Shown one piece after another: positions 3,001 through 6,000 of a stretch of 64,000 nt of DNA. Source of the DNA: Escherichia coli (GTDB lineage: Bacteria > Pseudomonadota > Gammaproteobacteria > Enterobacterales > Enterobacteriaceae); the NCBI RefSeq assembly GCF_048403405.1, contig NZ_CP183129.1. One strand, written 5' to 3'. Position numbers: made by a program. The stretch's first letter is position 1, and every line of letters starts with the position of its first letter.

Positions 3001-6000
3001 ATTCGGTGTAACCCCAGCGTGGCCTGTTGCTCCTCGCTTTTAACGGCGACGGATTTTACCGGCTGCTGAACCGCCAGCCAGATGGCTCGGGCGTCCATCA
3101 CATCGTTTTTATTTCCCATCACGAATGCTTTGACGAACCGGCCTTTGAGTAATCTGACCTTATGTCCCAGTTTCTGAAGCTCACGCGCCCAGTGATGAGA
3201 ACCCCCACAGGCCTCCATGCCGATAAGGCAGGGTTCACGGTTGCTGAAATATTCAAGGAATTTCTCACGCTTAACCTGCTTATCGATAATCTCTACGGTA
3301 TGTTCATCAACGAAATGCACCTGCATAAGATGTTTTGCAATATCAACGCCGACAGGGATATATTTCATGGTGTGGATCCTCCAGTCTGTTGGGAGCGAAA
3401 CGCATCCCGTTGGGCACGATGATGCCGGAAATCTGCGGGGATCCACACTCATCTACTTAATCCCCGAGCGGCTCATTTCATAATGTTGGGATGCGTTCAT
3501 TACATTTCCTTTTTGCAGATAAATGAAAACGCCAGCCCTGTTCAGGCTGGCGTCAGTGGAATAAAGTCTGGTGAGTAAGACTCACCTGTTCTGTTGCAGA
3601 AGCTGCTGTTGGCGCAGGGTACGGATATCTTCCCTGGCCTGTTTAATGCAGGGCAGCAGTGCTGCTGAATCCGTTTTATCCTCATCGTTGTCGAAGATAA
3701 TCCCTGATTCGCAGTCAATATTGTCCTGCAGCCACGCAATCAGAATATCCAGCGCTGTTTCCGTGGTTAATGATTTCATGTTGTGAATTTCCGGGTTACC
3801 AGTCGAAAGTGGGTAAATCCGGCAGGCATTCAGCGCTGGCATCCAGATGAATGAGACTGACGCCATAACGTCGGGTAAGTGTGACAACCAGACGGCGGAA
3901 CGTTTTTGACAGCCCCAGGCGTTTAAGCCGCAGAACCGGGTATGACCACGCATCGGTACGTAACAGATATCCGCTACCTGTAAAATGAATCCATTCTGAT
4001 TCGCCGGTGTCATTCGTCTGATGCGACAGCGAGTACAGCCAGGCGTTGTCTGTTTCCGTGATATGCGCGGTACTACAGCGTATACCGCTCAGGGCAGCAG
4101 AGGGGGGGGTGCTGTCTGTTGAGGTCCGGTCAGATTCATCAACAACACGAAGGGAGTAGCCATTATCGCAGACCACGTTAATCAGTTCGGCAAGCTCAAC
4201 ACCATCGACGTCAACGACAATTCGCCCCATGTTCAGTGCCTGTACGTTAACGCTGTCAGCTTCCAGCGTCAGGGCCAGTTTCATCGTTTTGCCTCCGGAT
4301 GCTTGCCCTGGGTAATGTTATTTACCATTCTGTAATTGTTCCGGGTCATCAGGCCGGTCGCCCTGCGAGCCCGGAGAATATCAATGCTGTTGATTAACTG
4401 CGACGGGGCTCCTGCGCTGAATCCCGGCTGGTCGGTACGTACCAGCGCGTATTTTTCAACGAGAAAGTTCACCGCGTCACACAGTGAAATCCCTGCCTCA
4501 ATATGCTGCTCAATCACACGTTCATCAGCGAACGGTGTGTCATTCAGCGTGAGGCCATAGTGCTGGTCCAGCAGTTGGGTGAGCAGTGTCTGCCAGATGG
4601 TGACGGGAGACGGGCAGCGCGATGCCGCCCGTACGTGTGTGTCGGGTAATGTTTTCATACTGAAGATTTTCCTGATATGCAGATATAAGAAATGGAAAAG
4701 TGGCGTGGAGAAAGCACCAGGCCGGAGCAGAAGACTATTCCGGAGGGTTACTTTCCGTTTCGGTCGCAGGATAAACAGCCAGATAAACGTAACCACAGGA
4801 CCCGAGGGTGTCGGCATCGCAGGTCAGCCCTTTCGCATACAGCGTGACGGTATGCTGATGGCGGGGATTCAGTTCACCGCTGGTGAGCATGAGTTCCAGT
4901 TGTTTCATCAGCAGTGGAAAAGCCTGGTCCAGATGGTATGCATCCGCATTGCTGAACCGGCCCCTGATACCGGCGCGGTCGGCAAGGTAATGCAACCGGT
5001 TACCCTCCTGCACCAGACGGGCGCCAAAACAAGGTGTCACGGCGCAGGGCAGCCCCCACCAGGGGAGGTCTTTGTTGTCGTCGGGAAGCGTTGTTCCGGG
5101 GAGTGTGTCCGACATGATAAAATCCTCACAGAAAATCGGTGAATGATAGTTTAACGATGACGGGTCAGCCGGCGCGCAGACCGGCTTCGGTGAAGGTATA
5201 TTCGTTGATGAGAAGGGCCTCATCCACAGCGGTGTCTGAGGTCAGCCAGTCGTACTTGTTTTCCAGCTGGCGGTACAGCCAGAAGGCCAGGTCGCGCAGG
5301 GCTTCGCTGACAGCGGCTTCCGCATCGGTTGTCATTGCCTGACCAGTCGGACTGTTCCGGGTAACAGTGATATCCATGCTGTACGGATGGCAGTAACGTC
5401 CCCGGTGACTGATTTCAGCCTGAAGCTGCCAGAAGTTACGTTTCTGCACCGCCTGCAGGGTATCAGCAATACGATGAAGCTCACGCTCCTGCGGTGCATG
5501 CTCCCTGATTCTCCGGGCTGTTGCAGACTGCCAGTGCCAGCGTCCTTCAAAACAGGCTCCGTCCCCCTGGCTGCAGAATCCGCTGAACCAGATGCACGGC
5601 TCTTCCATAAACCTGCCATTGCTGAGCCGGAAAACGCGCTGGCGGAGGTCAATCCCGAAAATGCCACAGACCTCCCTGAAGTCTTCATACACGTTTTCAT
5701 ACCAGTTGCTGTCAGCATGATGCTGACGGTACCAGTCGCGGGCTTTTCCCCGTGCCGGGCAGGAAAGTTCATCCAGCGTATACACTGTGATGGTGATAAT
5801 GCTGCTCATCAGAATGCCTTTACTGACTCAGTTCAGAGTGACGCTCATCAGCCGGACATACGGGCCAAAACTGTCCTTACGACGTTCAGCAAACACGGCC
5901 AGCACACCGGGAATATCCTGCACTTCACGACCGGTATACGCTTCAGTGCTGCCGTGCCAGCGGTATTTGCCGGTACAGAACGGGAAAAGACGGGATGTCG

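Follow-up and report, generated by a model that had tools for sequence, protein, structure and literature searches.

A CbeA/CbtA type IV toxin–antitoxin pair followed by two conserved small genes, DUF5983 and DUF957, in a probable CP4-44-type island segment of Escherichia coli

Introduction

The CbtA toxin of Escherichia coli K-12 is a 124-aa dual inhibitor of FtsZ and MreB (PMC5624674). F65, the determinant of FtsZ binding, is conserved in CbtA, YpjF and YkfI, and R15 of K-12 CbtA is needed for MreB binding; YpjF and YkfI have Cys at position 15, yet still affect elongation (Heller 2017, PMC5624674). K-12 CbtA shares 58–62% identity with its paralogues (PMC5624674). In experiments with K-12 the type IV antitoxin acted on the cellular targets and not on the toxin (PMC5624674), and autoregulation of the operon was absent (PMC5371832).

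In K-12 CP4-44 the genes are arranged as cbeA–cbtA–yeeW (b2004–b2006), with 88 nt between cbeA and cbtA (Wen 2017, PMC5371832). At a paralogous locus, the genes upstream appear to belong to the same operon (Wen et al. 2017, PMC5371832). On the Shigella SRL PAI the order is YeeU, YeeV, YeeW/L0008, DUF957/L0009 and DUF4942/L0010 (PMC6980539), and a survey of toxin–antitoxin systems found DUF5983 always downstream of CbtA_toxin (PMC10790755). Here we describe a locus of this kind and compare it with its relatives.

The locus and its known relatives

We analysed a 64,000-nt stretch of E. coli DNA (NCBI RefSeq assembly GCF_048403405.1, contig NZ_CP183129.1), hereafter the window. Over its whole length the window matches E. 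coli ATCC 25922, and likewise at least 24 further genomes among the matches listed, with 100% identity. In the PGAP annotation of ATCC 25922 the boundaries of the four CDS, all on the minus strand, coincide with the coordinates of the first-pass annotation. The features are as follows.

5165..7962, minus strand: co-directional array upstream, encoding DUF932, antirestriction, RadC/JAB, DUF987 and a 214-aa hypothetical protein (ORFs, Pfam, PGAP)
4735..5115, minus strand: cbeA, yeeU-family type IV antitoxin, 126 aa (PGAP, Pfam, K-12 and PDB matches)
4659..4734, minus strand: cbeA–cbtA spacer, 76 nt (alignment of 10 E. coli loci and one Serratia locus)
4281..4658, minus strand: cbtA (yeeV), cytoskeleton-binding toxin, 125 aa (PGAP, Pfam, K-12 match)
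3796..4284, minus strand: DUF5983-family gene, full-length yeeW-like, 162 aa (PGAP, Pfam)
3582..3779, minus strand: DUF957 gene, 65 aa (PGAP 'DUF957 domain-containing protein')
3518..3554, minus strand: intrinsic-terminator-like hairpin (stem 3554..3528) and T-rich tail (scan, folding)
2077..3503, minus strand: IS110-family insertion sequence, transposase 3368..2349 (junction mapping, Pfam, PGAP)
1220..2065, minus strand: DUF4942 (methyltransferase-like) gene (PGAP CDS)

Very probably, the segment forms the distal end of an E. coli integrative island of the CP4-44 type. With the same high probability it carries a CbeA/CbtA type IV toxin–antitoxin pair and, behind it, the two small conserved genes DUF5983 and DUF957. 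The cbeA–cbtA block is an ordinary E. coli island segment that is already known and has been annotated before. Of 5426 complete E. coli genomes, 3657 contain the whole block at a query coverage of at least 80%. Purifying selection acts on each of the four genes; dN/dS is 0.30, 0.22, 0.24 and 0.12 for cbeA, cbtA, DUF5983 and DUF957, respectively. The identities and boundaries of the genes, this selection and the conserved synteny described below were observed directly.

The first-pass annotation had taken the genes for relatives of K-12 YeeU, YeeV and YeeW, and protein comparison bore this out with identities of 89%, 85% and 69%. The CbeA_antitoxin profile of Pfam (PF06154) matches CbeA with 182.9 bits (cut-off 27), and identity to K-12 CbeA extends over residues 1–122. 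CbtA matches the CbtA_toxin profile (PF06755) with 202.9 bits (cut-off 25) and aligns to K-12 CbtA (124 aa) without gaps over residues 1–124. The DUF5983 protein has both a DUF5983_N domain (PF25638, 110.8 bits, residues 4–58) and a DUF5983 C-terminal domain (PF19419, 79.9 bits, residues 69–162), and its identity to the 64-aa YeeW lies over the N-terminal domain. PADLOC and NCBIfam gave no match for any gene of the block, a PHROGs search of the block genes returned families of unknown function only, apart from the DUF4942 matches, and a search of 1900..5400 against Rfam gave no RNA family at a threshold as loose as E = 1. An isrC match at 59 kb had raised the suspicion that the window holds a further cbtA/cbeA copy; tblastn found none.

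The locus resembles K-12 CP4-44 in gene order, strand, the 4-nt overlap of cbtA and yeeW, the conserved spacer before cbtA and the RadC and DUF987 genes upstream. It differs in that K-12 YeeW is cut to 64 aa (the N-terminal domain only), DUF957, DUF4942 and the 214-aa gene between DUF987 and cbeA are missing from K-12, and K-12 cbeA starts with GTG and encodes a protein 4 aa shorter. The five-gene order is identical to that of Shigella SRL PAI orf52–56 and EHEC L0007–L0010, where an IS110-like element is also nearby (PMC6980539); in Shigella, however, this element is listed after DUF4942, whereas here it lies between DUF957 and DUF4942, and the alleles differ. K-12 YfjZ/YpjF (CP4-57) and YafW/YkfI (CP4-6) are members of these toxin and antitoxin families and likewise have antirestriction, RadC and DUF987 genes upstream, but their spacer is 20 nt (PMC5371832) compared with 76–89 nt in the loci aligned here.

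More distant loci in Serratia sp. DD3 and Hafnia alvei (three loci, L011, L017 and L018) share the antirestriction, RadC, CbeA, CbtA and DUF4942 genes and a gene containing DUF5983_N, which overlaps cbtA by 4 nt. They differ from E. coli in that DUF5983_N and DUF957 are joined in one protein of 118–121 aa and, in Serratia, the DUF5983 C-terminal domain is encoded by a separate 106-aa gene upstream of cbeA. A 102-aa ORF downstream of the Hafnia fusion gene was considered as a counterpart of that domain, and comparison showed that it is not.

The start of DUF5983 overlaps the cbtA stop codon

The first-pass annotation had noted that the start of the yeeW-like gene overlaps the cbtA stop codon, and this holds, also in the PGAP annotation: the DUF5983 gene starts at 4284 within an ATGA whose TGA (4283..4281) ends cbtA, and GGAGG lies 7 nt upstream of its ATG. 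Of 10 E. coli loci, 9 retain the 4-nt overlap, as do Serratia and Hafnia, and translation of DUF5983 is probably coupled to that of cbtA through it.

A conceivable but doubtful reading is that the module is a three- or four-component system, in which DUF5983, mainly through its N-terminal domain, and DUF957 would act together with CbtA instead of being passengers, for example as a direct CbtA binder, a regulator or a second antidote. The overlap persists in Serratia sp. DD3 and Hafnia alvei despite protein identities of only 40–58%, DUF5983_N is fused directly to the DUF957 domain in both, and K-12 keeps exactly this N-terminal domain as YeeW. The strict position of DUF5983 downstream of CbtA_toxin in the survey (PMC10790755) and the purifying selection on DUF957, the strongest of the four genes, point the same way, and the reported action of CbeA on the targets and not on the toxin (PMC5624674) leaves room for a direct binder. 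Against this, CbeA, YafW and YfjZ each neutralise their toxins alone (PMC5371832), and the DUF957 domain also occurs without cbtA, on plasmid- or phage-like Enterobacter contigs of about 100 kb and beside a relaxase. Neither DUF5983 nor DUF957 has a PADLOC or NCBIfam match, and no informative structural match was found for them. Sequence searches of the PDB gave no solved relative of CbtA, DUF5983 or DUF957. Foldseek found no PDB entry below E = 3.3 for the confident DUF957 model, whose fold is a generic helical hairpin. The conserved 4-nt coupling in three genera and the DUF5983_N–DUF957 fusions may be read as a hint of a link to the toxin. That the DUF5983 N-terminal domain and DUF957 are co-translated accessory components of the CbtA/CbeA module is tentative and, on the whole, unlikely.

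The 65-aa DUF957 ORF is a real gene

Whatever its function, the second gene after cbtA, which the first-pass annotation had described as a conserved-looking 65-aa ORF, is real. The ORF (3779..3582) begins 16 nt past the DUF5983 stop codon and probably initiates at its own ATG there. We took its name from PGAP, which labels the identical protein WP_000839260.1 'DUF957 domain-containing protein'; homologues are named likewise. The Pfam copy used and NCBIfam gave no match, even at E = 10 and E = 1, and a model of the family is apparently absent from them. Homologous clusters number 371, and there are 97 distant representatives; an FDNDEDxTDS motif persists in homologues with as little as about 40% identity. 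AlphaFold2 models the protein confidently (pLDDT 93.8) as a helical hairpin. Variation is concentrated at third codon positions, and in the loci compared pN/pS is 0.14 in frame compared with 0.98 and 1.84 in the other two frames, which contain 23 and 29 internal stops compared with none in frame.

These data bear on a preprint according to which AntiFam deems an ORF downstream of DUF5983 beside cbtA/cbeA spurious and some databases contain fused DUF5983+ORF predictions (bioRxiv 10.64898/2026.06.09.728211). The AntiFam entry in question, ANF00264, seems to be DUF957; we matched them by description only, as an ORF directly downstream of DUF5983 beside cbtA/cbeA, sometimes fused, with a confident fold. 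We consider it very improbable that the 65-aa ORF is spurious or made only as a frameshift extension of DUF5983. In favour of that reading, the ORF lacks a strong Shine-Dalgarno sequence, one DUF5983+ORF fusion of 208 aa (P0241) was found here, and the Pfam copy used apparently contains no model for the protein. However, selection restricted to the DUF957 frame, an ATG kept in 9 of 9 loci, the confident model and the conserved motif argue against a spurious ORF, and the frame control, the conserved ATG and the dN/dS of 0.12 largely refute it. The programmed frameshift proposed in the preprint was rejected because the spacer from the DUF5983 stop codon to DUF957 is 11, 16 or 19 nt, so that the relative reading frame varies between loci; in one locus (L003) a stop codon 3 codons upstream of the DUF957 ATG means that the two ORFs do not overlap. 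The evidence on DUF957 speaks against the labels 'spurious' and 'programmed frameshift', and we treat it as a gene of the block in what follows.

A conserved hairpin follows DUF957

The terminator-like hairpin that the first-pass annotation had placed downstream of the 65-aa ORF was recovered by a scan. It comprises 11 pairs (7 G-C) at 3554..3528 and a 5-nt loop, followed by a TTCATTTATC tail. The 97-nt region around it folds with -32.7 kcal/mol (z = -4.27 against shuffles), and the hairpin is stable in the minimum-energy fold as well as in the centroid. It has been kept in 8 E. coli relatives. In one of them, L005, a C-G pair has changed on both sides to T-A, and this one covarying pair lends modest support to structural conservation. 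Serratia has an unrelated hairpin and T-tract at the corresponding position. Termination may be partial, because the T-tract is not continuous and relatives have, within about 30 nt of the hairpin, a gene that carries its own ribosome-binding site.

That gene is DUF4942, which starts about 30 nt past the hairpin in eight E. coli relatives and matches DNA-methyltransferase-like PHROG families. In the window, the IS110-family element has inserted just past the hairpin, as seen from the junctions compared with uninterrupted relatives, with AAAT on both sides. It splits the DUF4942 ATG from its AAAGGAA ribosome-binding site. The transposase matches DEDD_Tnp_IS110 and Transposase_20 of Pfam and is called 'IS110 family transposase' by PGAP. 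By this comparison, DUF4942 appears to be the ancestral fifth gene of the block, now cut off by the insertion. The 5' untranslated part of the element was also folded, and its fold was not significant (z = -1.86).

On the other side, the same-strand array (DUF932, antirestriction, RadC, DUF987, 214-aa ORF, cbeA) has gaps of 15–62 nt and keeps its order in E. coli relatives, Hafnia and Serratia. A promoter scan near cbeA gave 2 sites compared with 2.5 expected by chance, and the one on the same strand overlaps the start codon. Most likely, a long message from this strand, starting upstream of cbeA, carries the genes, and most of it probably ends at the hairpin 3554..3528; a single transcript ending there is plausible from the layout. 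The earlier proposal of a tightly coupled four-gene unit survives in part. Its boundaries were drawn too narrowly, given the 76-nt gap between cbeA and cbtA, the longer co-directional array upstream and DUF4942 as a fifth gene in relatives.

The starts of cbtA and cbeA are internal ATGs

Both genes lie within longer ORFs on the minus strand, of 178 aa (4281..4817) and 162 aa (4735..5223), which are present as the first-pass annotation described them. It had placed the true starts at internal ATGs at 4658 (cbtA) and 5115 (cbeA), and several lines of evidence agree with these positions. For cbtA they are PGAP, the K-12 protein, the Pfam profile, of which position 1 lands on the internal Met of the 178-aa ORF (residues 1–112 match positions 1–112 of 112), and the cbeA–cbtA spacer, which contains 1- and 4-nt indels among the aligned loci. 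The upstream in-frame start is absent in 5 of 9 relatives, and an invariant TATCAGGAAAATCTTCAGT lies directly 5' of the cbtA ATG in the alignment of 10 E. coli loci and the Serratia locus. The spacer is 76 nt here; most relatives have 88–89 nt, since their cbeA stops 12 nt sooner. For cbeA, which lies directly upstream of cbtA on the same strand, PGAP, K-12 CbeA and the PDB structures of YeeU, 2INW (E 3.5e-75) and 2H28 (E 1.1e-74), which align from residue 1, all agree with 5115; GAGGA precedes this ATG, and 5 of 9 relatives have a stop codon 8 codons upstream of it.

The possibility that the real genes are the longer ORFs, with N-terminally extended CbtA and CbeA of 178 and 162 aa, has next to no likelihood, and comparison with relatives has already refuted it. 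In its favour, each of the two reads open from an upstream ATG in this allele. Against it, the extensions overlap, in other frames, the 3' ends of the genes that precede them, and they have stops or missing starts in most relatives and non-triplet indels in the spacer. The Pfam profiles and the proteins of K-12 and the PDB start no earlier than the internal ATGs, conserved ribosome-binding sequences precede these, and PGAP picks the short forms. The 178-aa and 162-aa ORFs are best regarded as mechanical artefacts, whose sole cause is that this allele happens to lack an upstream stop codon. For annotation this has the value of a sanity check only: naively taking the longest ORF makes both genes too long, an error that standard pipelines already avoid.

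Discussion

Homology to the K-12 proteins suggests that the 125-aa CbtA (start 4658) would bind FtsZ and MreB and in this way stop cell division and elongation, and that the 126-aa CbeA (start 5115) would counteract it. CbtA carries F65. Residue 15 is Cys here and Arg in K-12 CbtA; because Cys15 is also found in YpjF and YkfI (PMC5624674, PMC5371832), which resemble the present CbtA in both residues, R15 is not family-defining for CbtA.

The two genes after cbtA are real and strongly conserved, and one of them is seemingly listed as spurious in AntiFam. Activation of the CbtA toxin is still to be explained (PMC5371832), which makes DUF5983 and DUF957 cheap candidates to test. If they were partners of CbtA, AntiFam would be wrong to label the ORF that follows DUF5983 'spurious', and the 'type IV' pair would be part of a three- or four-component system.

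Gene layout and identity

We found the cbtA/cbeA locus to comprise four adjoining genes on the minus strand, and the coordinates that the first-pass annotation had given them are the same in the NCBI annotation of ATCC 25922.

Genes of the block (NCBI annotation of ATCC 25922)
5115..4735, minus strand: YeeU-family type IV antitoxin (CbeA); ATG at 5115 with GAGGA upstream
4658..4281, minus strand: CbtA-family toxin; ATG at 4658 with AGGAAA upstream
4284..3796, minus strand: DUF5983 family protein; GGAGG before the ATG at 4284
3779..3582, minus strand: DUF957 domain-containing protein

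Read directly on the strand, the DUF5983 start codon (4284) and the cbtA stop together form ATGA, and the DUF957 ATG (3779) lies 16 nt past the TAA of the DUF5983 gene. Over 3400..5300, ATCC 25922 and no fewer than 24 further listed genomes match this sequence at 100% identity.

The proposed family assignments held. Pfam scores were 202.9 bits for CbtA_toxin, 182.9 for CbeA_antitoxin, 110.8 for DUF5983_N and 79.9 for the DUF5983 C-terminal domain. Compared with K-12 MG1655, CbeA is 89% identical to YeeU over 122 residues and CbtA 85% identical to YeeV over 124 residues, both gapless from residue 1, from which the solved YeeU structures 2INW and 2H28 also align to CbeA (E ~1e-75). Over its N-terminal domain, the DUF5983 protein shares 69% identity with the 64-aa K-12 YeeW; because YeeW matches this domain only, it is a truncated form. 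The whole locus is already covered by standard annotation and literature.

We found no second cbtA/cbeA copy within the window. Elsewhere in it, two Rfam matches exceeded the gathering score: the IS102 RNA (20166..20371, minus strand, 259.7 bits) and the Hfq-binding sRNA isrC (59115..59237, minus strand, 97.4 bits), which in K-12 lies within CP4-44 near flu.

Start codons of cbeA and cbtA

Two longer reading frames cover the toxin and antitoxin genes.

Mechanical reading frames (ORF list)
4281..4817, minus strand: 178-aa ORF over cbtA
4735..5223, minus strand: 162-aa ORF over cbeA

Several independent lines of evidence led us to reject both as true genes, and to agree with the first-pass annotation on the internal ATGs. 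On the long ORFs, the Pfam CbtA profile starts exactly on the internal Met (4658); for CbeA, the profile match begins 18 residues past its internal Met (5115). We also compared nine diverged E. coli copies, K-12 among them, with 87-93% DNA identity: in five, the cbeA start is preceded by a stop at a distance of 8 codons, and five have no upstream in-frame start codon for cbtA. Among the loci, indels of 1 nt and 4 nt occur in the cbeA–cbtA spacer and would break the 178-aa reading frame. Functional CbtA has been taken as a 124-aa protein (PMC5624674).

The cbeA start codon is ATG here only and GTG in all nine relatives. CbeA is also 4 aa longer at its C-terminus (4735..4749, minus strand), an extra end common to the E. 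coli relative L003, so that the spacer measures 76 nt, not 88-89 nt. Immediately ahead of the cbtA ATG, 19 nt (TATCAGGAAAATCTTCAGT; window 4659..4683, minus strand) are invariant in 10/10 E. coli loci, although the coding regions are ~10% different, and TATCAGGA of this stretch is kept even in Serratia. This would fit a conserved translation-initiation region; the conservation appears to exceed what a plain Shine-Dalgarno sequence needs, and the stretch could be a candidate regulatory site.

Extent and possible coupling of the block

A 1731-nt query spanning the block reached at least 80% coverage in 3657 of 5426 complete E. coli genomes, and all four annotations were present in 47 of 60 evenly sampled rows. 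The start of the yeeW-like gene had been said to overlap the cbtA stop; this 4-nt overlap occurs in 9/10 E. coli loci as well as in Serratia sp. DD3 and Hafnia alvei. In the claim of a tightly coupled four-gene unit, the boundary at four genes is poorly supported, given co-directional genes upstream and DUF4942 downstream in relatives.

Upstream of cbeA, DUF932, antirestriction, RadC/JAB and DUF987 genes and a 214-aa ORF run in the same direction with gaps of 15-62 nt, and a promoter scan near cbeA found no promoter-like sites above chance (2 vs 2.5 expected). For the CP4-6 paralogue, Wen et al. put the upstream genes in the same operon and found no autoregulation (PMC5371832). The 214-aa ORF (5165..5809, minus strand; PHROG 5162, function unknown), between DUF987 and cbeA, has no Pfam or NCBIfam match and is a variable cassette, present in the relatives L003, L004 and L008 and missing from K-12, L005-L007, L009 and L010. 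PGAP names for its relatives vary ('hypothetical protein', 'antitoxin of toxin-antitoxin stability system', 'DUF8835').

At the 3' end, the scan confirmed a terminator-like hairpin past DUF957.

Features 3' of the block
3554..3528, minus strand: stem of a terminator-like hairpin (scan); 11 pairs, 7 G-C, then TTCATTTATC
about 2077..3503 (~1427 bp), minus strand: IS110-family element; transposase 3368..2349; 13-bp terminal inverted repeats (ATGAACGCATCCC)

The hairpin is stable in minimum-energy and centroid folds (97-nt region, z = -4.27 vs shuffles) and is the first convincing terminator-like site 3' of the array on the minus strand. Every E. coli relative keeps it (in L005 one C-G pair has become T-A), and Serratia has a different hairpin and T-tract at the same place. 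The hairpin belongs to the island itself rather than to the insertion sequence. It may be leaky, because its T-tract is interrupted and a gene follows in relatives: methyltransferase-like DUF4942 starts ~30 nt past it in all eight DUF957-bearing E. coli relatives, with an AAAGGAA ribosome-binding site. The Shigella SRL island shares this gene order, tabulated as YeeU, YeeV, YeeW/L0008, DUF957/L0009 and DUF4942/L0010 (PMC6980539).

Here the IS110-family element separates the DUF4942 ATG from its ribosome-binding site (AAAGGAAAT), lying exactly between the two, with AAAT on either side, and the block thus ends physically just past the hairpin. A further copy of GGGATGCGTT in the 5' untranslated region of the element pairs with its left end in the predicted fold; the left junction is 100% identical in at least 25 listed genomes. 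According to the ATCC 25922 annotation (L001 13150..14472), the island carries 3' of DUF4942 (window ~1..1151, minus strand) a gene for DUF6088 and one for an AbiEii/AbiGii-family nucleotidyltransferase toxin with a frameshift; beyond them come an IS110 fragment and the capsule genes kpsF/kpsE. Together, the DUF6088 and AbiEii/AbiGii-family genes would represent another toxin-antitoxin remnant, AbiE-like and of type IV.

The DUF5983 and DUF957 genes

Selection indicates that both genes 3' of cbtA are real. Across loci, dN/dS (Nei–Gojobori) was 0.30 for CbeA, 0.22 for CbtA, 0.24 for DUF5983 and 0.12 for DUF957. The 65-aa ORF, earlier described as conserved-looking, was compared in three frames across 8 sequences.

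Frame control of the 65-aa ORF
Annotated frame: pN/pS 0.14, 0 internal stops
Frame +1: pN/pS 0.98, 23 internal stops
Frame +2: pN/pS 1.84, 29 internal stops

Its variable columns number 12, 7 and 22 at codon positions 1, 2 and 3. DUF957 homologues form 371 clusters at 90% identity, chiefly from Escherichia, Klebsiella and Salmonella and including the name Aec78, and 97 representatives at 50% clustering; the family is narrow yet real. Its alignment, down to ~40% identity, keeps a WLxDNIDC…IIFDNDEDxTDS motif, and the AlphaFold2 model is a helical hairpin (pLDDT 93.8; helices 6-22 and 38-64) with the conserved acidic motif in the joining loop. Structure and sequence searches gave no match suggestive of function.

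The 65-aa protein (3585..3779, minus strand) had zero matches in NCBIfam 20 and in the 2025 Pfam copy, which contains no DUF957 model. Precomputed Pfam fields of its homologues are empty, although PGAP names it DUF957; its Pfam model was perhaps withdrawn, which may be related to AntiFam ANF00264. That entry, labelled a spurious frameshifted phage protein, consistently adjoins DUF5983 beside cbtA/cbeA and has a confident dimer fold, for which a programmed frameshift was proposed (bioRxiv 10.64898/2026.06.09.728211). From position and behaviour, ANF00264 is very probably the DUF957 ORF.

Our data back the view that this ORF is not spurious, yet argue against programmed frameshifting between DUF5983 and DUF957. 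All nine loci keep the DUF957 ATG. Its distance from the DUF5983 stop varies (11, 16 or 19 nt), which puts five loci in relative frame +1 and four in +2. L003 has a stop three codons 5' of the DUF957 ATG, and its two ORFs therefore do not overlap at all. Proteins listed in databases as "fusions", P0241 for example, continue through an alternative frame and look like frameshift errors or mutations.

Possible association with the toxin

DUF5983_N is fused to DUF957 (118-121 aa) 3' of cbtA in Serratia sp. DD3 (L011 2774..4357) and Hafnia alvei (L017/L018 5001..5366); Serratia encodes the DUF5983 C-terminal domain on its own, in a 106-aa gene that takes the DUF987 position upstream of cbeA. A putative functional link between CbtA, DUF5983_N and DUF957 is best supported by these fusions together with the conserved overlap. 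Against an obligatory link of DUF957 to cbtA, however, the DUF957 domain occurs without cbtA on ~93-110 kb plasmid- or phage-like contigs of the Enterobacter cloacae complex, as the C-terminal half of a 118-aa protein (L015/L016 5001..5357) near the replication/recombination genes gp32, 5'-3' exonuclease, RecA and Rep3. A 65-aa DUF957 gene also adjoins a NikA/relaxase pair away from cbtA (L014 567..764), and published experiments neutralised the toxin with the antitoxin alone (PMC5371832).

The analysis shows gene identities and boundaries, selection, synteny and conserved signals; the mechanism that follows is inferred. By analogy with K-12, CbtA would bind FtsZ and MreB, blocking division and elongation, and CbeA would counter it by stabilising the target polymers (PMC5624674). 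From the anatomy of the block, DUF5983 translation is probably coupled to that of cbtA, DUF957 is probably translated by re-initiation on its own ATG, and most transcripts probably stop at the hairpin. F65, the FtsZ determinant of CbtA (PMC5624674), is conserved here. Residue 15 is Cys (4614..4616, minus strand). R15 is required for MreB binding in K-12 CbtA and R15C abolished it, but Cys occurs naturally in YpjF and YkfI, and the opposite substitution made no difference (PMC5624674); we therefore draw no functional conclusion from Cys15.

The earlier observation is confirmed. Its interpretation is supported too, although the unit belongs to a larger array and its proposed transcription is a prediction.
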